Shown piece by piece: positions 2,457 through 60,684 of a stretch of 64,000 nt of DNA. The translations under genes and the position numbers were made by a program. How positions within the stretch are numbered: the first letter of the stretch is position 1; every line of letters begins with the position of its first letter. The stretch comes from a phage. The stretch lies in the sequence record NC_135732.1; one strand, written 5' to 3'. The notes under the pieces were generated by a model that was given only the letters and a program-made list of their open reading frames with translations, had not been told where the DNA came from and searched no databases.

Positions 2457-2959
2457 AGCTGCCTCCTCTTCAAGTTATAGAAAAACTCACTGTATCGCTT
2501 TGTAACGAGCTTTTCTATCAAACTGGTGCGATTGCATTACCTGGTATAGTTTATATAGCTGTGGAGCGATTTAGGGGCCTTCTTGTCAGTTTCCACACAT
2601 AAACTTCATCCAAGCTCGCGCGGGAGACTCTCAACCGACTCCTTACGGCGCTGGCAAGCTTTCGTCGGTGGTCCACATCAGTGCTCGGCCTTTGGCCTGC
2701 GCTATCGCTTCGCTCCCACACATGTTAACAGACCTGTATGTATGAACTTCTGTTATTGTGTGCACCAAAGAGGCCCGGCATCTCGCCCCTCGTAGGCGAG
2801 TGCCAATGAAGGGCCGACACTGCCCATAGTAAGTAATAAATTTAAAACATGGTACTTAGGATCTAGTATATTCTACATAAGTTAAGTATATGTACTTAGT
2901 ACCATAAGTACTAGATCTTTTATTTTTTATTATTTAGTTATTTTAGTTATATTCTTTAT

Positions 2960-3042
2960 GTGTCCGTATCACGGACAGTTAGTGTCCGTATTACGGGCAG
3001 ATGTGTCCGCGTGACGGACAGTAGTGTCCGTATCACGGACAG
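2960..3042. repeat. Four tandem copies of a 19-bp palindrome GTGTCCGTATCACGGACAG (period 21-22 bp)
   Basis: Copies at 2960, 2982, 3003 and 3024; each is an inverted repeat GTCCGT..ACGGAC. Lies in an AT-rich intergenic gap between two minus-strand genes. Confidence 0.8.
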
Positions 3043-3116
3043 TTAATAGTATCCGTTCCATGGCGAACATAAAACATACGAATCCTTATAGTACAGATAT
3101 TTAAGTTTTTACTGGT

Positions 3117-3467
3117 CTAACCAGTTGTTGACATCCGAATAACTTCTTCTGGTGGCAAAACTTTGGAAAATGTGCATCTTTTACCTCTCCCTTGTGTGGA
3201 TGTTTCAACCACTCCTGCACATTCTAAAGTTTTAACGCACGCTGCTGCTTTTGTTTTCTTTATCCCAACATCTGCTGCAATTTTCCTTGTGCTTGGTGTG
3301 AAGCGTGAATTTCCTCCAAGCTTATACCAGTTGTGCAGGTAGCAGTATACGATCTTGTCATACAAGTCAAGAACAACAACCTCCCCAGTTGTGTCATTCA
3401 AAACTTTTGACATAGATAGTATTTCAAGGGGGACTTTAAGATATAGCAGCTTATCCCCATCTTTCAT
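3117..3467 (-). CDS. putative helix-turn-helix DNA-binding protein
   Basis: 116-aa ORF; segment TRKIAADVGIKKTKAAACVKTLECAGVVE resembles an HTH motif. Assignment by eye only. Confidence 0.45.
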   Translation of the reverse strand: MKDGDKLLYLKVPLEILSMSKVLNDTTGEVVVLDLYDKIVYCYLHNWYKLGGNSRFTPSTRKIAADVGIKKTKAAACVKTLECAGVVETSTQGRGKRCTFSKVLPPEEVIRMSTTG

Positions 3468-23205: not shown

Positions 23206-23484
23206 ATGAGCTGCGAAAAATCTTTTTTCATCATCATTTACGGTAAGGATAACTGCCCACATTGTGTCAGAGCAAAAGAATTTGCAATCAGCAAAGGTCT
23301 GCCTTTTGTATATAAGACACTTGGCGAGGGCTACACAAAAGAAGAGCTTATTGAGAAGTGTAGTCCAATCGTCCCCCGAACGTTGCCGCAGATCTTCTTA
23401 GAAAGCGATCTTGACAGTATCCATATAGGCGGTGCCGACGATTTCATCTCTTTTGTTAAGAATGGTTTTGGAGAGAAAAAGTGA
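23206..23484 (+). CDS. glutaredoxin-like protein
   Basis: Active-site CPHC in IIYGKDNCPHCVRAKEF; located between nrdB and nrdD. Confidence 0.8.
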   Translation: MSCEKSFFIIIYGKDNCPHCVRAKEFAISKGLPFVYKTLGEGYTKEELIEKCSPIVPRTLPQIFLESDLDSIHIGGADDFISFVKNGFGEKK

Positions 23485-24334
23485 AAGTTGTAAAACGGGA
23501 CGGTAGAGAAGAGTTCTATAACGGAATTAAGGTGATCAAGGCGGCAGAGTCCGCCTTACTTGAGTCTGGACATACTGAAGAAGAAGCTTACCGGATCGCC
23601 TGCGCGGTTAATGAAGTTGTTGCTAACAATCTACCAACCGACCAGTGCACAATCTCTGTAAAAAATATCCATATCCTTGTTGAAGATGCTCTTATGGATA
23701 TGGGTTTAAAATGTGCAGCCAGAGAATACATCCAGTATAGACAGACAAGAGATAATAACAGAGAGGCAGGTGGAAAACTGCTTGCAGATATTAGTGGCTT
23801 CTTGGATCGAACTTGTGATGAATTTACAAAAGAAAACGCAAATAAGCCTACTAATCATGTACACACTCATCGCGACCTGCTTGCAGGTATTCTTAGCAAA
23901 CACCTTGCATCAACACAGATCCTGCCAGACCGTGTCTCCGAAGAGCACAATAAAGGCTTCATCCATGTGCATGATCTTGACTACTTGATCAGTCCGTTAA
24001 CAAACTGTTGTTTGGTAAATTATCCAGATATGTTGGAAAACGGATTCAACATTGGTAACGCCCATGTCAGTAAGCCGAAGTCAATAGGGGTTGCAACAAC
24101 AATCCTTAGCCAAATCTCTAGTGCGGTAGCTAGTGCTCAATATGGGGGTCAGACTATGAGCCATATTGATCATTATCTGGCACAGTATGCTGAAGCGACC
24201 TATGAGAAGAACCTTAAATTTTGCCAGGAACATTGGTTGCCAGATGCTGAGACTGTTGCAATGCAAATGACAGATAAAGACGTATTTGACAGCATGCAGA
24301 CTTTGCTCTATCAAATCAATACATTAACTTCTGT
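23481..24334 (+). CDS. nrdD: anaerobic ribonucleotide reductase NrdD, exon 1 (3' boundary approximate)
   Basis: Exon ends in the conserved block YQINTLTS; ORF then hits a stop at 24342 inside the putative intron. Confidence 0.8.
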
Positions 24335-25128
24335 CAACGGTTAACAAACTGGCCGTTGTAAAACTCTCCTAACCTCATAAGAGGGGTCGGTAAATCCGGC
24401 TAACGGGGAACGCTAAGGCGAAAGCTATGCCAATCCCGTGACTAGTTCTTACAGGAGTTGGAACGGTTGTAACGACTAACGAAAGGCAGAAATGCTTGAC
24501 AAACATTTCTGAACCAAGTAGTGTAGGGGTTAGTTGAAATACTAACTTCGAAATGGAGAGGCTCTATGAAAAAGATCATTCTTAATGGTGAAGAATCAAA
24601 CTATGTGATTGATGAGGTTGGAAACGTATACGGAAAACGTGGAATGCTACACCCAATATTGTGGGGAGGTTATGGAAAAGGTAACAAGCATGTTAAACGC
24701 CGTTATATGTACTCTTTCGACCACAAAGGTAAAAAGATTCGAATCCAAACCTCAAGGATTGTTGCCTTGTATTGTTTGCCGGATGTCCCAGAAGACCCTG
24801 AAAACTGGGAAGTGAATCATAAAGATGGCAATACATTGAATGATCATCCGTCTAACCTAGAGTGGGTTTTGCCGGAAGATAATAAGAGACATGCTTTCCG
24901 AACAGGACTTTGTCCAGGTAAGTGCTATAGGAAAGTGCAGGCATACAAAGGGAAAACCTTGGTGGGTGAATATCCTTCACTCTATGCCTGTGCAAAAGCC
25001 TTAAATTTGAACGTAGGTAACGTTCATAGGGCTATTGAAGGAAATGCCGAAGGTAAGCATCTCACAATAAAGGGTTATTATCTTATTGAAGTAGAGTAAG
25101 AGATAGTCTGGCCCTGTGGAAACACAGG
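24335..25128 (+). mobile_element. putative group I intron in nrdD carrying an HNH homing-endonuclease ORF (boundaries +/- 3 nt)
   Basis: Conserved NrdD sequence resumes in frame at QQTPFITLSLGLDTS...ITPVFPKVLFFLEEGVN; exon 1 ends with U and the intervening sequence ends with G. Confidence 0.6.
24566..25099 (+). CDS. HNH homing endonuclease (intron-encoded)
   Basis: HNH core WEVNHKDGNTLNDHPSNLEWVLPEDN; RBS GGAGAGG before the ATG. Confidence 0.8.
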   Translation: MKKIILNGEESNYVIDEVGNVYGKRGMLHPILWGGYGKGNKHVKRRYMYSFDHKGKKIRIQTSRIVALYCLPDVPEDPENWEVNHKDGNTLNDHPSNLEWVLPEDNKRHAFRTGLCPGKCYRKVQAYKGKTLVGEYPSLYACAKALNLNVGNVHRAIEGNAEGKHLTIKGYYLIEVE

Positions 25129-26401
25129 GAGGAGACAGCAGACTCCATTCATCACATTAAGTTTAGGACTGGATACCTCGGTCTTTGGTAGAATGATTAC
25201 CAAAAATTACTTGAAAGTCCACAAAATGGGTCTTGGTGAAGAACGGATCACACCTGTGTTCCCTAAAGTGCTGTTCTTCCTAGAAGAGGGTGTCAACATG
25301 AACCCTGGAGATCCTAACTATGATTTGAAACGATTAGCTCTGGAATGCTGTGCAGAACGTATCTATCCTGACTTCGTATCTGTACCACTAAATAGGAAAG
25401 TGACAGGCTCGACAGATGGCAAAGTAACGAGCATGGGTTGCCGGAGTTTTCTTAGCAAATACAATGACTTGGAAACAGGCGAGGAGAAATACCTTGGCAG
25501 ATTTAACTTAGGCGTTGTTAGCCTTAACCTGCCAATGATTGCGGCAAAAGCTAAGACGGAAGGTGTTGATTTCTTTGCAGTTCTTGACGAATACTTGGAT
25601 CTTGCATACGAGGCTCACCTTGTAAGGGTTAACCGTCTAAAAGGAACAAAGGCAGGGCAGAACCCCATCATGTGGTGTGAAGGCGCTCTTGCTCGCCTGG
25701 ATCCTGAAGAAAGTATTGATAAACTCTTCTATGATGGGTACGCTTCCATCAGCATTGGGTATATTGGTGTGTATGAAACCTGTCAGATTTTGGGCAGAGA
25801 AGGTGACAAGGCTTTAGCTCTTGGAATCCTTCAGCACATGAGAGATGCTTGTGAGCGGTACAAGAAGGAAAGTAGACTAGCATTTAGCTTGTACGGCACT
25901 CCTTCTGAGAGTCTATGCTATAAAGCTGCAACCTGTCTGGATCGTGAATATCCTGAAGTGTTGAAGCACGAGCATGAATATCTCACCAACAGTTTCCATC
26001 AGCCAGTATGGATAAATAGCTCTCCTTTTGATAAGTGGGAGTATGAGGAAGGTTTTGCTATGATCTCCTCTGGTGGCAACATCGGATACGTAGAAACACC
26101 TAACCTGAAAAACAACCTGGATGCTTTAGAGGCTCTTGTTGACTTCGGGTATAAACACATTATGTATTTTGGTATTAACCAACCTGTGGATAAATGTCTC
26201 AAGTGTGGTTTCTCTGGTGAGTTCAGTGCAACAGCTAAAGGCTTTGTATGCCCAGAGTGTGGAAACCATGAAGAGGGAACGATCAGTGTAATTCGACGTG
26301 TGTCTGGATACCTTTCCAGTCCTAACTCCCGTCCTTACAATAAAGGTAAGCAAGCGGAAGTTATCGAGCGAGTTAAGCACTACGGAAGTTGTGGTTGCTG
26401 A
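25129..26401 (+). CDS. nrdD: anaerobic ribonucleotide reductase NrdD, exon 2
   Basis: DPNYDLKRLALECC block, C-terminal zinc ribbon CLKCG...CPECG and glycyl-radical motif RRVSGYL. Confidence 0.8.
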
Positions 26402-57064: not shown

Positions 57065-57418
57065 TTAGTGACAATCACCCCAATTACGACCACACAAGTA
57101 TTCACCTGTGATCTGGAACGGGACTCCCATCATTTTAGAAGCTTGCCAGAAGCAATGCACCACCATTTCACCCACCGGGCTCCAGATAAGTTCAAGCTTC
57201 CCGTCATCGTTCAGGATAGGATCGTACACCGTGTTTCCGTCTCTGTCAACCACTTCGTTTCCGTTCTCATCCTTGCGTGCCTTTTTGTACTTATGACCGT
57301 CAAACACATGAAGTTTGGCTTCCTGCTCTGCCTTAAATGCTTCCAATTCTTCAATTGTGTCGAAGGTGTACACAGTCTTATACTTAGGCGTGTCAGGGAC
57401 CTGAAGTTGGTACTCATC
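57065..57418 (-). CDS. DNA polymerase (family A), exon 2 (C-terminal part)
   Basis: Begins DEYQLQV, completing motif C (...IIYYH|DE) when joined to exon 1; ends LCGRNWGDCH like Pol I (GENWDQAH) and T7 (GPNWAICH). Confidence 0.6.
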   Translation of the reverse strand, partial: DEYQLQVPDTPKYKTVYTFDTIEELEAFKAEQEAKLHVFDGHKYKKARKDENGNEVVDRDGNTVYDPILNDDGKLELIWSPVGEMVVHCFWQASKMMGVPFQITGEYLCGRNWGDCH

Positions 57419-58260
57419 CAATAGTTCAGGTAGGTCGTTAAGCTACCCCGCACCATTACGTGCACAGCCATACGGTTTCCTGTATGGATCGGACTATCTC
57501 ACTACCTTGTTACCAAGGCACCTCTCATTTCGACCGCACTTGCTGGCCTACTCTACTCGCTTCTTCACACCAAACTATGTTGGAGCTATGCTTTCGATAG
57601 TCTCTGAACGTTACTACCAGGTGTAGTTTTTAGAGATATGTTTCCACTGTCTTCTTTGCTTTATGGCTCTGACCGTCTCATAAGGATACCCAAGATCCCT
57701 AATCTCGCATTGTCGTAGACCACTCTGCAACAGTTCGCAAATCTCCGTTACCTCATCCTCGGTCAGCACAGCGTTGGCATTATACTCACCGACTGGCCTT
57801 ACTCTGAGTTCATTATCGTAGGCGTGTTTGATATTTCCACCAGGGGTAGTCCATTCCAGGTTCCAGTGTGCATTGTTGTACTTATTTCCATCCTTATGGT
57901 TCACCCATGTGAGCTTTTCAGGATCAGGGTTCGGTACAAAGCATTCAGCAACCAAGTGGTGGACACCTTTTGTGCACTGCTTCCCCTCGATGAGCATGGT
58001 TACGCAAAGGTAACCTCTACCATTATCAAAACAAAACATTGTTGTATGATCACGTTTCGATAAAGGTATTGTTCCATCATCAAACACGGTATACCCGTGA
58101 TAATCAGCTGATCTAGCCATTTTAACTACACCCCTTTAGTCTTCGCTGCGGATTAGCATATTAAGCTTTTACCATGTTCAGGTGTAAAAGTCAACTTAGC
58201 CTTCCCGTCAATTAAAGAGGTTTTCGACGTGCATCACTGCACGAAGCCACAATGTTATTT
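57419..58260 (-). mobile_element. putative group I intron interrupting the DNA polymerase at motif C, carrying an HNH ORF
   Basis: Exon 1 ends ...TAC CAT (last nt U); the 842-nt intervening sequence ends with G; splicing restores YYHDEY. Confidence 0.55.
57614..58120 (-). CDS. HNH homing endonuclease
   Basis: HNH core LTWVNHKDGNKYNNAHWNLEWTT; same subfamily as the nrdD intron ORF. Confidence 0.8.
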   Translation of the reverse strand: MARSADYHGYTVFDDGTIPLSKRDHTTMFCFDNGRGYLCVTMLIEGKQCTKGVHHLVAECFVPNPDPEKLTWVNHKDGNKYNNAHWNLEWTTPGGNIKHAYDNELRVRPVGEYNANAVLTEDEVTEICELLQSGLRQCEIRDLGYPYETVRAIKQRRQWKHISKNYTW

Positions 58261-60684
58261 ATGGTAATAAATAATACGACGAACACCTTCATCGTACCAC
58301 CCGCGCTTCACCATTTGGTGGTGCATGAGTATCCCAACTAAGTCACACAACGATGCACCACCATTCTGTTGGTATGCATTAAGTAAAGAGTGTTTAGATC
58401 GGGTCCAGATAGCATGACCATCAAAAGAGTAGATAAACTTCTTACCCGTTGCTTCCCAGAATTTCTCCAGATCTTCTTTACGCCCCTTAAGACCGGGGTT
58501 GGCATCCCAAAGTGCATCGATTACCCTTTGTCCCAACTCTGGGGAGATATCCAGCATGTCTGCAACTTTGTCTTTTTGTGCCCCATACATAACCCCATAC
58601 GTGATAGGTTTACCGTCGTTACGAGACACCTCTCTGCCTGCTACTTTTGTATATGCCTCAGCATTGTTTTGGTGTGCGTCCCCGTTACTTACAACATCAT
58701 AATACAAGCCGTTGTCGAACTCAAAGGCACCCCAAGCCCCGATAAGCTGCTCTAAGTTGGACCCGTCAATACCGATCTCAAAGTATCCCGGAGGAACACC
58801 CCACAGACTACGCATCTCTTTACCCATAACAACTTTAGGAGATGGTTTAGGCATGTTTGCACAAATACTGTGTTTCTGTCTGGAAGTGTTTGTTAATCCA
58901 GAGCTTTTAGCAGGAAGCTTATGGTCAATCTTCAAACGTGGGTGATTAAGAAGACCAGTGTCAACCTTATCCTCCTTGATTGGATCAAGTACCGATCTGC
59001 GGTTTCGCAATGATAACCACAAGACGATATCTTTAGCCATCTCTCCGTTCAATTTTTCAAGATTCGGGCACAGGTGTCCAAACGTATCTTTCAGTTGCGG
59101 AGAAGTAATAAGTGCCCTAGCTTTTCTACGTATTTTCCCGAATACTTCCTTTTTAATCCTTTCGGAGTTAGGAAAGCTTCGGAACTTGTGCACGGTTGTC
59201 TGGAACTTAGCATCAGTTTTGTTCCAGAAGTTGATAATTAGATCACAATACTCTGACTCTAAAAGCTCGTCCATATATGCATATACTCGTGCATCAACAT
59301 CTGCATCAGGTAGAGCTTTCTTCTTGCTGTCTTTAGTTACATCCTTAGTTCTCCACATTGTCGGAAGCCAACCAGCACTGATCAGATACCGCTTAATGTC
59401 GTCCTGATTGCTGATTTTCATAGGTATCTTGCAGTCCGGCATTCGCTTCTGCTGTAGATCACTTATTGCCTGATCCATTAGCTCTTTAGGTAAAGGTTGT
59501 GGTGTGGAGGTGCCCTTAATATAGCCTCTCAAGAAATCAGCCATCTTATCTGGGTCTTTGCAGCCCATCTCTTCACACCATTTTATCCCCATCTTACTGA
59601 CATCTCCTGTGGAGGTAAATGCTCGCTTAGGCGGGGCTTTGAACTCTAAAGCACTCATGTCTACAGGATAGCCAAGCTTATCTTTTAACCATTTCCAACC
59701 ATTATTGGAAATTGTCCCATCTTGGTTAAATGGCTTTTCAGGGAACTTGGGCCGCTGAGACATTGACAGCTCTTTTAAAGGTAGTTGTGGTTCAACACGA
59801 TCAGCGATTTCTTTCATCCACGCATCGCAACGGTCACGTAAAGCAATAGCTCCATCTATGTCAAAATACACACCCTGACGGGCCTGCAGCTCCATCAGGA
59901 AGTGCTGCAGCATGCCTCGGCGCAATGCGTTCTTCCAGGTGATTTTCTTGAACCCTTTCGGCTTCTCTTTGGCTGGATCGTACATAAAGTTCTGCATGTC
60001 AGATTTGCCGTAGAATACACCTTTTGATTCCGCTACCAGCTCTTTCCAGAGCAGCTCCTGGATGATAACGTCCTCGAATACACGATCCACATACTTCCAC
60101 AACGGAAGATCGCGCCAGTCATCAATTTGAACTTTCTGGTTACCAAGGGCGTAGCCCCATGCCATAAGGCCGTGAGGACCAACAGGCTGCATTTTCTTAG
60201 TAACCGGGTTGAATACAGAGTCCGGACAACCTTTTGGTAAAGGGCGATCAGGCCACAAGATTCTGCTCATCGCCAACGTATCAAACAGGTTAACCTGGTG
60301 GTCGTTGATAGTCCCCATGCATTTAGGATCACGGAACATATCAAAATGAATACCGGATAATCTTTCCATCAGCATAAAGTCATAACTGTAGCAGTTATGG
60401 CAGTTCAAAGCTGTTGGTGACCAGTCGGAATTGCCTGTAAGCCAACCTTCCAACTCCGAAAAATCTGCTATGCGAACTTCAAAATCTTTATGAAGAGTTT
60501 TCTTTGCCAGAATAAAGTTCTTAGCCTTCTCTATATCCTCTTCGGAGTAGTGTGTGCGGTCATTTAGAGGAAGGAACAGCATAAAACGGTTCTTATTCAG
60601 CTCTTTAAACAGGCCGCAGTGATAATAAAGATCTGGATCTTCCAGCAAACCGGATGACTCAAAGTCGAACGACCACATGCTCAT
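58261..60684 (-). CDS. DNA polymerase (family A, T7-like), exon 1
   Basis: 3'-5' exo motif FDFESSG; motif A IGIDGSNLE; motif B RNDGKPITYGVMYG; track ORF reads through into the intron (H-K-stop). Confidence 0.8.

Follow-up and report, generated by a model that had tools for sequence, protein, structure and literature searches.

Positions 24342-25138 of the analysed stretch of DNA (hereafter the window; 64,000 nt, sequence record NC_135732.1), which belongs to a Vequintavirus (rV5-like) phage, very probably constitute a mobile group I intron in the phage nrdD gene, with proposed self-splicing and HNH homing. According to its modelled structure, the intron belongs to subgroup IA2 and has the architecture of the td and nrdD (sunY) introns of T4. 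As a mobile element it is an ordinary one, and GenBank records of close relatives already annotate an intron. Splicing, nicking, homing and endonuclease activity are what we infer for this element from sequence comparison. The features are compiled in Table 1.

The boundaries were obtained from the intron-less Vequintavirus alleles of rV5_ev158 and Murica, in which nrdD runs unbroken as TCTGTCAACGGG/CAAACTCC, encoding TSVNG/QTPF; the rV5 and Murica nrdD fragment across the insertion point reads TCTGTCAACGGG/CAAACTCCATTC. As an 881-nt query (24300-25180) matched only 84 nt in these genomes, 797 nt are absent from them. Excision of 24342-25138 restores the reading frame, creating the exact TSVNG/QTPF junction and a full-length NrdD of 707 aa. 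The joined protein matches NF006732 in one stretch over residues 2-702 (824.8 bits; cut-off 657), which corresponds to a full-length equivalog, and TIGR02487 with 534.7 bits, and both the ATP-cone and Gly_radical domains were found. In a Pfam-type domain search, the exon-1 ORF (23481-24344), whose GTG start overlaps the stop codon of the glutaredoxin gene upstream, contained the ATP-cone and NRDD profile positions 1-154, and the C-terminal NrdD ORF ending at 26401 contained NRDD profile positions 180-562 and the Gly_radical domain. Thus, the layout described in the first-pass annotation (an exon-1 ORF, an HNH ORF at 24566-25099 and a C-terminal NrdD ORF) is present in full, and its proposal of a group I intron in nrdD is borne out by the boundaries from intron-less alleles and by a core with strong covariation. 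The expected exon-terminal U and intron-terminal G are also found (U24341 and G25138), but the splice sites had been placed 6-10 nt away. NrdD homology, which had been thought to end at NTLTS, runs on through VNG to the last exon-1 codon, GGT 24339-24341; VNG is regarded as coding because its codons show synonymous changes in relatives. Exon 2 starts at CAG 25139 (QTPF) instead of the preceding CAG (QQTPF). Intron-less and intron-bearing alleles differ beside the junction by GGG versus GGT at -1 and by CAA versus CAG at +3. The first intron bases, UAA, form a stop codon for exon-1 translation directly at the 5′ splice site.

The nrdD intron displays the full group I layout, consisting of P1 with U24341·G24352, P10, P3-P9, P7.1-GUA-P7.2, the J8/7-P7 string AAGAGAUAGUC and a terminal G. 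P1 is CAACGGU/GCCGUUG in the window and, with a compensating change, AAACGGU/GCCGUUU in the ORF-less allele of relatives, while P10 can be read straight off the sequence as CUG 24349-51 with CAG 25139-41, the first bases of exon 2. P3 has its counterparts in UCUGCC/GGCAGA of T4 sunY, UCUAUC/GAUAGA of td and CUCUGC/GCAGGG of the ORF-less allele; in the family alignment described below, it is 99.3% paired, and all six pairs have changed on both sides. GGCAG 24485-89, which immediately follows P7, was considered as the 3′ strand of P3 in the window and was dropped because it has no complementary 5′ strand. The H1/H2 region carries a near-invariant AGGGGU motif, and T4 td and sunY have no H1/H2. 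P7 is part of the guanosine-binding helix in group I introns. Downstream of it, P7.2 is followed by GAAAU and then by the 3′ strand of P3. As quoted in PMC3428280, subgroup IA2 is defined by the presence of P7.1 and P7.2, joined by a G-U-A linker, between the 5′ strand of P7 and the 3′ strand of P3, and this placement of P7.1-GUA-P7.2 is found in the nrdD intron. P8 of the ORF-less allele (GUCUGA/UCAGGC) differs by three double compensatory changes. J8/7-P7 is the most conserved core motif of group I introns, and ATAGTC is invariant across relatives. An overlap of the 3′ core with the ORF had been anticipated and is present, as GUA GAG U 25091-25097 forms the 3′ strand of P8 and the remaining bases of the HNH ORF stop codon begin J8/7. 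The distance between this stop codon (25097-25099) and the 3′ splice site is 39 nt, and not approximately 30 nt as first estimated. The ORF was also said to be in frame with exon 2, which is true in the window but without significance: in phage FV3, the intron tail contains one additional nucleotide, which places the ORF and exon 2 out of frame, and the frame match is therefore a coincidence.

The ORF-deleted intron folds with -102.8 kcal/mol, compared with -71.8 ± 5.1 kcal/mol for shuffled sequences (z = -6.1; none of 200 shuffles was as good), and its unconstrained minimum-energy fold recovers P1, P3, P4-P6, P7.1, P7.2, P8 and P9. When the ORF (530 nt) is kept, the minimum-energy fold of the full 797-nt intron is without the long-range P3 and P8, which have an ensemble probability of about 0.25. 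With the ORF-less allele as the starting point, a covariance model retrieved at least 20 related phage introns, which were then aligned. In this family alignment, 91.6% of the cells are paired (57.8% when shuffled), both sides have changed in 52 of the 58 pairs, and the covariation score amounts to 0.534, compared with 0.126 for shuffled alignments (0/500 reach the observed value) and 0.04-0.10 for slid controls, all on an alignment fitted to, and hence biased toward, the model structure. The covariance-model alignment was used instead of MAFFT, which misplaced the 3′ half both for the window against the ORF-less allele and for 11 family members. The few substitutions among ORF-carrying alleles are structure-neutral, replacing A-U pairs by G·U pairs in P7.1 and P9.

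An Rfam scan of the window at the gathering threshold called no intron. The group I model RF00028, with which a search had been recommended, does match at the nrdD intron, but with only 27.7 bits (E=8e-5) against a gathering score of 50; ORF-less alleles score 29-30 bits (E ~1e-4) over their full length, also below 50. The alignments of the window in E-value mode are forced-global and credible at the 3′ end only. The low score, and with it the miss at the gathering threshold, is explained by the 530-nt ORF in P8 and by a mis-assignment of P3, which is due to the missing P2 and to the extra hairpins H1/H2 inserted between P3 and P4. The P3 assigned by Rfam to the ORF-less allele (CGCUG-G-CU/CG-CAGGG) includes non-canonical pairs and was replaced by CUCUGC/GCAGGG on the basis of the T4 comparison and covariation.

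Table 1. Features of the interrupted nrdD locus in the window.
Feature	Position	Strand	Description and basis
nrdD exon 1	23481-24341	+	GTG start; residues 1-287; C-terminal TSVNG
Group I (IA2-type) intron	24342-25138	+	797 nt; exact presence/absence against intron-less alleles, fold
P1 5′ strand CAACGGU	24335-24341	+	Last 7 nt of exon 1; U24341 is the U of the splice-site U·G pair
Internal guide sequence	24349-24358	+	GCCGUUG 24352-58 pairs with exon 1 (P1); CUG 24349-51 in P10
P3 5′ strand CUCUCC	24364-24369	+	Joined to P1 by GUAAAA; no P2, as in T4 sunY
Hairpins H1 (24373-84) and H2 (24386-400)	24373-24400	+	Between P3 5′ strand and J3/4; in fold and covariance alignment
P4 (ACGGGG/UCCCGU) around P5	24403-24439	+	GAAA tetraloop caps P5; fold, RF00028 alignment, covariance alignment
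P6/P6a	24440-24470	+	P6a hairpin 24445-24464; fold, compensatory changes against ORF-less allele, covariance alignment
P7 5′ strand GACUA	24474-24478	+	Pairs with UAGUC 25104-25108; aligned to RF00028 consensus GACUA...AUAGUC
P7.1 (24488-24510), GUA linker (24523-25), P7.2 (24526-24549)	24488-24549	+	Fold, covariance alignment
P3 3′ strand GGAGAG	24555-24560	+	Also core of HNH ORF Shine-Dalgarno GGAGAGG 24555-61
P8 5′ strand GCUCUAU	24561-24567	+	Includes the first two bases of the ORF start codon AUG 24566-68; fold, covariance alignment
I-HmuI-like HNH homing-endonuclease ORF	24566-25099	+	177 aa and stop codon; in P8 loop
P8 3′ strand GUAGAGU	25091-25097	+	Last two ORF codons and first base of stop codon
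J8/7 AAGAGA and P7 3′ strand UAGUC	25098-25108	+	Aligned to RF00028 consensus AAGAUAUAGUC with high posterior
P9 hairpin CCCUGUG-GAAA-CACAGGG (25112-29), 9-nt tail, terminal G25138	25112-25138	+	Fold; 3′ boundary from intron-less alleles
nrdD exon 2	25139-26401	+	Residues 288-707; N-terminal QTPFITLS; contains glycine-radical domain

The helices of the window intron match those of T4 sunY and td one to one, including P7.2-GAAAY-P3′-P8. The T4 nrdD (sunY) intron interrupts the same conserved stretch of the same host gene and has the same IA2 layout. Both nrdD introns start with UAAC, have no P2, join P1 to P3 by GUAAAA and contain a P9 hairpin, and the string P7.1-(A)GUA-P7.2-GAAAC-P3′-P8-AAGAUAUAGUCU is common to them. 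They differ in the insertion site, as the T4 intron is located 32 nt upstream in homologous coordinates, in the codon equivalent to Y277 of the window (24309-11), whereas the window intron follows G287. The T4 sunY endonuclease is the GIY-YIG enzyme I-TevII, encoded downstream of the core after P9, with 21 nt between the end of its ORF and the 3′ splice site; the window endonuclease is an HNH enzyme encoded in the P8 loop and is thus unlike I-TevII in both family and ORF position. The T4 td intron (IA2, I-TevI) is very similar in P3-J3/4-P4-P5-P6 (CUAAACGGGGAAC...CAAUCCCGUGCUAAAU versus CUAACGGGGAAC...CAAUCCCGUGACUAG) and shares P7.1/P7.2-GAAAC-P3′-P8 and an in-frame stop codon at the intron start. 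In contrast to the window intron, td resides in a different gene, has P2 and no H1/H2, and carries its GIY-YIG ORF from after P6 to just before P7 instead of in P8.

The first-pass annotation assigned the intron ORF to the HNH type, different from the homing endonuclease of the T4 nrdD intron, and the matches to HNH_3 and I-HmuI agree with this. The ORF scores 29.3 bits with Pfam HNH_3 (cut-off 24.8) and matches phrog_59 (E=3.9e-26). Its only PDB match by phmmer is 1U3E, the HNH nicking enzyme I-HmuI from the DNA polymerase intron of Bacillus phage SPO1 (residues 8-160 against 8-159); the match is a weak one (23.8 bits, E=2.7e-4), and the host gene and target differ. The two proteins, both encoded within phage group I introns, are collinear over almost the whole window protein and have in common the HKDGN...NL.WV...N motif. 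NHKDGN...NLEWV...N of the window ORF aligns with the catalytic H...N...N motif of I-HmuI. The C-terminal segment, a candidate helix-turn-helix-like module, which phmmer places collinear with the I-HmuI C-terminus, scores 18.4 bits as I-HmuI_NUMOD-like, below the cut-off of 27. The ORF is intact and has a Shine-Dalgarno sequence, and its protein is 98-99% identical across 27 Vequintavirus genomes. A scan for promoters and terminators found nothing relevant to the HNH ORF above background.

In the proposed mechanism, the nrdD transcript would self-splice via the usual two guanosine-initiated transesterifications, and the guide sequence CUG-GCCGUUG would align both exons to generate the mRNA for the 707-aa NrdD. 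The UAA after the 5′ splice site would stop ribosomes arriving from exon 1. The ribosome-binding site of the HNH ORF would be the 3′ strand of P3, with the AUG inside the 5′ strand of P8. As the Shine-Dalgarno sequence is in P3 and the AUG is in P8, ribozyme folding and ORF translation should be mutually exclusive, and we infer a coupling of translation and folding via these two helices. Such an exclusion would hold endonuclease expression low, or would tie it to unfolded or late transcripts. In a co-infection, the HNH enzyme would nick a relative's intron-less nrdD near TCAACGGG/CAAACTCC, and recombinational repair after the nick would then copy the intron into the empty allele.

Among approximately 115 Vequintavirus records, the nrdD site carries the intron with the ORF in 27, an ORF-less intron in 14 and nothing in about 70 or more. 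The ORF-less intron is 257 nt in length, non-coding and identical in its junctions to the ORF-carrying form. This presence/absence polymorphism, which concerns one exact site in genomes with 94-99% identity, provides indirect evidence for nicking and homing, and three allelic states at one site in one genus fit a mobile element. Another reading of this patchiness, which we regard as rather unlikely, is that the element is decaying: the intron would still splice, the HNH protein would no longer be active in homing, as with I-TevIII, a defective enzyme of T4, and the pattern would reflect ancestry and recombination instead of ongoing homing. The occurrence of ORF-less introns in the genus and the sub-threshold NUMOD-like match are consistent with decay, whereas the full length of the ORF relative to I-HmuI, its intact catalytic motif, the near identity of the protein in 27 genomes and the retention of a good Shine-Dalgarno sequence argue against it.

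Most deposited Vequintavirus genomes, including the closest match, phage nomo, present nrdD as two genes and an HNH gene. These records would suit a split gene without splicing, in which a free-standing HNH gene has been inserted and NrdD assembles from two separately translated halves. Such an assembly has been reported for the NrdA of Aeromonas phage Aeh1, which is split by mobE. Functional split RNRs exist in phages (cited in PMC7344957 and PMC3653736), and the RF00028 score is below threshold. Such an arrangement is nonetheless very unlikely here. A complete, covarying group I core lies on both sides of the ORF, and the 14 relatives with the 257-nt non-coding intron, the same junctions and no endonuclease gene are left unexplained. 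Separate translation of exon 2, the frame of which has no start codon before ATG 25193, would also lose the conserved QTPFITLSLGLDTSVFGR. Furthermore, the last exon-1 base is U solely in intron-bearing alleles and G in intron-less alleles, which fits the requirement of P1 for U. That nrdD is a pseudogene inactivated by a mobile HNH cassette, as the stop codons in its reading frame could suggest, is scarcely credible, since both exons are intact and join into the full-length NrdD equivalog (824.8 bits), the nrdG activase gene beside nrdD is intact, and the split arrangement is kept in 27 genomes, in which additional lesions are absent.

The intron reading agrees with the BASEL records, in which the nrdD CDS is joined from two pieces around a "putative homing endonuclease" and for which intron boundaries were set via comparative genomics (PMC8594841). 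WalterGehring (MZ501111) contains the same element, 98.7% identical over the whole locus, with a joined nrdD CDS, and HeinrichReichert (MZ501073) contains its ORF-less form, likewise annotated as a join. These records give coordinates only, and their CDS starts 213 nt downstream of GTG 23481, which would remove most of the ATP-cone (residues 1-91). The rV5 paper reported introns in the terminase only, and a literature search retrieved no published structure, subgroup assignment, splicing experiment or description for the rV5-like nrdD intron.

The finding alters no concept and is one more documented example of a phage ribonucleotide reductase gene that contains a homing-endonuclease intron. 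Its main value is practical and lies in the exact coordinates (exon 1 ending at 24341 and exon 2 starting at 25139), which permit correct annotation of nrdD. It is doubtful, though conceivable, that the H1/H2 module and the use of P3/P8 as a switch on the endonuclease Shine-Dalgarno and start codon are undescribed, and that one ribozyme lineage has been re-targeted by endonuclease swap. Many introns of uncultured phages also contain the H1/H2 module, which covaries among them. If the P3/P8 strands do serve as Shine-Dalgarno sequence and start codon, the intron would contain its own folding/translation switch. The presence of similar IA2 ribozymes 32 nt apart in nrdD of T4 and rV5-like phages, with unrelated endonucleases, would fit re-targeting by endonuclease swap. 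As the empty, ORF-less and ORF-carrying states occur in one genus, these phages would lend themselves well, as a natural system, to studies of how introns are gained and lost and of how co-infecting phages compete.

In a nucleotide comparison with databases, 23481-26401 shares 99.8% identity with Escherichia phage nomo and 94-99% with about 120 further records, nearly all Vequintavirus (rV5-like myophages). The gene order at the locus is nrdB, glutaredoxin, nrdD and nrdG, with the glutaredoxin stop and the nrdD GTG start overlapping (GTGA, 23481-23484). Read from this GTG, nrdD encodes a full ATP-cone (residues 1-91), whereas in the BASEL records the start is annotated 213 nt further downstream (locus position 714 versus 501), so that most of the ATP-cone would be lost. 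The three ORFs described in the first-pass annotation are all present where it placed them, with the expected domain matches (table below). In the intron-less rV5_ev158 and Murica, nrdD is uninterrupted and reads ...ACTTCTGTCAACGGG CAAACTCCATTC..., encoding TSVNG-QTPF. As a query of 24300-25180 matched only 84 nt in intron-less genomes, the window has exactly 797 nt extra, and this difference together with the intron-less junctions places the intron at 24342-25138. Exon 1 ends with the codon GGU (U24341) and the intron with G25138. The proposed length of ~795 nt and the proposal that the exon ends in U and the intron in G both survive, whereas the proposed breaks (after ...TS and before QQTPF) lie 6-10 nt off on each side relative to the intron-less alleles. 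The 707-aa protein encoded by 23481-24341 joined to 25139-26401 matches the NrdD equivalog NF006732 in one stretch over residues 2-702 (824.8 bits; cut-off 657).

ORFs at the nrdD locus and their domain matches (plus strand)
Feature	Position	Domain match
ORF	23481-24344	ATP-cone + NRDD profile positions 1-154
ORF	24566-25099	HNH_3
ORF	ends 26401	NRDD profile positions 180-562 + Gly_radical domain

Side-by-side comparison revealed a common architecture for the window intron, the ORF-less allele (an intron form at the same junctions that lacks the endonuclease gene) and the sunY and td introns of T4. At the splice site, P1 (CAACGGU/GCCGUUG) has a U·G pair; P2 is absent, and the joiner GUAAAA leads to P3 (CUCUCC/GGAGAG). 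P4-P5 with a GAAA loop precedes P6/P6a, P7 is GACUA/UAGUC, and P7.1-GUA-P7.2, quoted as the IA2 signature in PMC3428280, is present. The string P7.2-GAAAY-P3'-P8 is conserved and is followed by J8/7 AAGAGA, P9 and a 9-nt tail with a terminal G. P10 is possible, as CUG directly 5' of the P1 guide pairs with CAG, the first three bases of exon 2. Between the window and the ORF-less allele, compensatory changes are found in P1, P3, H2 (a hairpin described below), P6a, P7.2 and P8. An Rfam scan at the gathering threshold found no intron in the window; a group I match was obtained only in E-value mode (RF00028, 27.7 bits; E = 8e-5 in the local search, 0.005 over the whole window), and its alignment is convincing at the 3' end only, at AAGAGAUAGUCU and a GAAA-capped hairpin. 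The ORF-less alleles align with RF00028 over the full length (~30 bits, E ~1e-4).

When the ORF was swapped for a GAAA loop, unconstrained folding recovered all the listed helices, and the ORF-deleted intron folded at -102.8 kcal/mol versus -71.8 +/- 5.1 for shuffles (z = -6.1); with the full ORF kept, the long-range P3 and P8 helices reached an ensemble probability of only ~0.25. A covariance model built from the ORF-less allele with the proposed structure scored 110.8 bits on the window and also retrieved more than 20 related introns from IMG/VR contigs, these scoring 30-56 bits. In the family alignment, which was fitted to the model structure itself, standard pairs occupy 91.6% of cells versus 57.8% in shuffles, and both sides change in 52 of the 58 pairs. 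The covariation score from this structure-fitted alignment is 0.534 versus 0.126 for shuffles (0/500 reach 0.534) and falls to 0.04-0.10 with partners slid; P3 is 99.3% paired in it, and most P3 positions show four pair types.

The segment between the P3 5' strand and J3/4 forms two small hairpins, H1 and H2 (24373-24400), which carry a near-invariant AGGGGU. Hairpins of this type also occur in loci of other phages (L008, L017, L019, L021, L027, L033 and L049) and are both conserved and covarying in a broader phage intron family, whereas the T4 td and sunY introns are without them; in relatives of L008 (L010 and L012-L016), J3/4 directly follows P3. No name for this module was found in the literature searched, and it may be a structural detail worth specialist attention. 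Directly after the P7 5' strand, 24481-24514 comprises ~34 nt extra relative to the ORF-less allele. Within this segment, GAAAGGCAG is almost identical to the GAAAC-GCAG / GAAAC-GGCAG junction usually found before P3' in both the ORF-less allele and T4 sunY, and GAAAGGCAG is followed by a 7-bp hairpin, here called P7.1. Recombination between introns may have left the segment behind.

The 177-aa product of the internal ORF matches HNH_3 above the Pfam threshold and is assigned to phrog_59. Of the solved structures, it matches I-HmuI (1U3E) alone, in a collinear alignment that spans residues 8-160 and takes in the catalytic H/N/N positions. Conservation of the protein among the 27 ORF-bearing Vequintavirus genomes is 98-99%, and its next relatives, in Gram-positive and Vibrio phages, share <42% identity. 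The ORF is placed in the P8 loop, where GCUCUAU (24561-67), which takes in the start-codon A and U, is base-paired with GUAGAGU (25091-97), the last two codons and first stop base. The suggestion that the 3' intron core overlaps the ORF is thus borne out, and the 5' side overlaps too. The P3 3' strand doubles as the Shine-Dalgarno sequence, GGAGAGG; since the start and this element lie within P8 and P3 strands, ribozyme folding and ORF translation would be mutually exclusive. That the ORF is in frame with exon 2 is true of the window, but in FV3 one extra nucleotide in the tail of the intron puts the two out of frame; therefore, the shared frame is a coincidence.

In homologous coordinates, the T4 nrdD intron is inserted 32 nt further upstream, within the codon that corresponds to Y277, and carries, downstream of the core, the GIY-YIG enzyme I-TevII, a type other than HNH, as had been noted. 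Given the differing site and enzyme, the window intron is a different insertion with a similar ribozyme. Further elements with a group I signal were observed. A second sub-threshold RF00028 match (57469-58270, minus strand, 33.2 bits, E=1.1e-4) is flanked by an 809-aa family-A DNA polymerase ORF (58255-60684) and, downstream, by a 118-aa ORF, and encloses a 168-aa HNH ORF (57614-58120, VNHKDGNKYNNAHWNLEW; region 57065-60684, minus strand). In phita32, C2 and JEP1, nrdD exon 2 carries a second insertion of ~760 nt with a 170-aa ORF (2468-3217 in the phita32 locus, L003, equivalent to ~25438-25474 in the window, which is without it); a group I core close to that of T4 sunY forms the 3' end of this insertion (GAAGAUAUAGUCUGAUCUGCAUGGGAACAUGCAG; RF00028 35.3 bits, E=1.8e-6). 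Elsewhere, a minus-strand tRNA cluster (13-580) comprises Arg(tct), Tyr(gta), Ser(tga) and an odd 99-nt tRNA-like gene (13-111), to which ARAGORN gives no type (4-base 'anticodon') and which aligns with the Rfam tRNA model at 35.5 bits with a 26-nt insertion.

Within one genus, the nrdD site exists in three states: 27 records have the intron with the ORF, 14 relatives, such as HeinrichReichert, have the 257-nt ORF-less intron at the same junctions, and the rest are empty. At position -1, intron-bearing alleles have GGU in place of GGG, and at +3, ORF-bearing alleles have CAG in place of CAA. In LL12 (MH491969) and C9 (MG065661), also Vequintavirus, the match covers query bases 1-41 only, on the exon-1 side of the splice junction, and the nrdD site may have yet another arrangement. 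In GenBank, BASEL WalterGehring (98.7% identity) annotates nrdD as a joined CDS in two pieces that encloses a putative homing endonuclease, and HeinrichReichert also has a two-piece joined CDS, whereas most other records list two nrdD genes. According to the BASEL paper (PMC8594841), intron boundaries were set by comparative genomics; the rV5 paper mentions terminase introns only, and our literature search found no paper describing the nrdD intron structure or testing splicing. The group I intron in nrdD is real, and its first interpretation was correct except for the exact junctions and the irrelevant frame match. As read from the compared alleles, the three-state distribution and flanking base changes are the usual footprint of a homing intron, and the nrdD intron is an unremarkable member of a familiar class of elements, which public annotations already recognise at this site.
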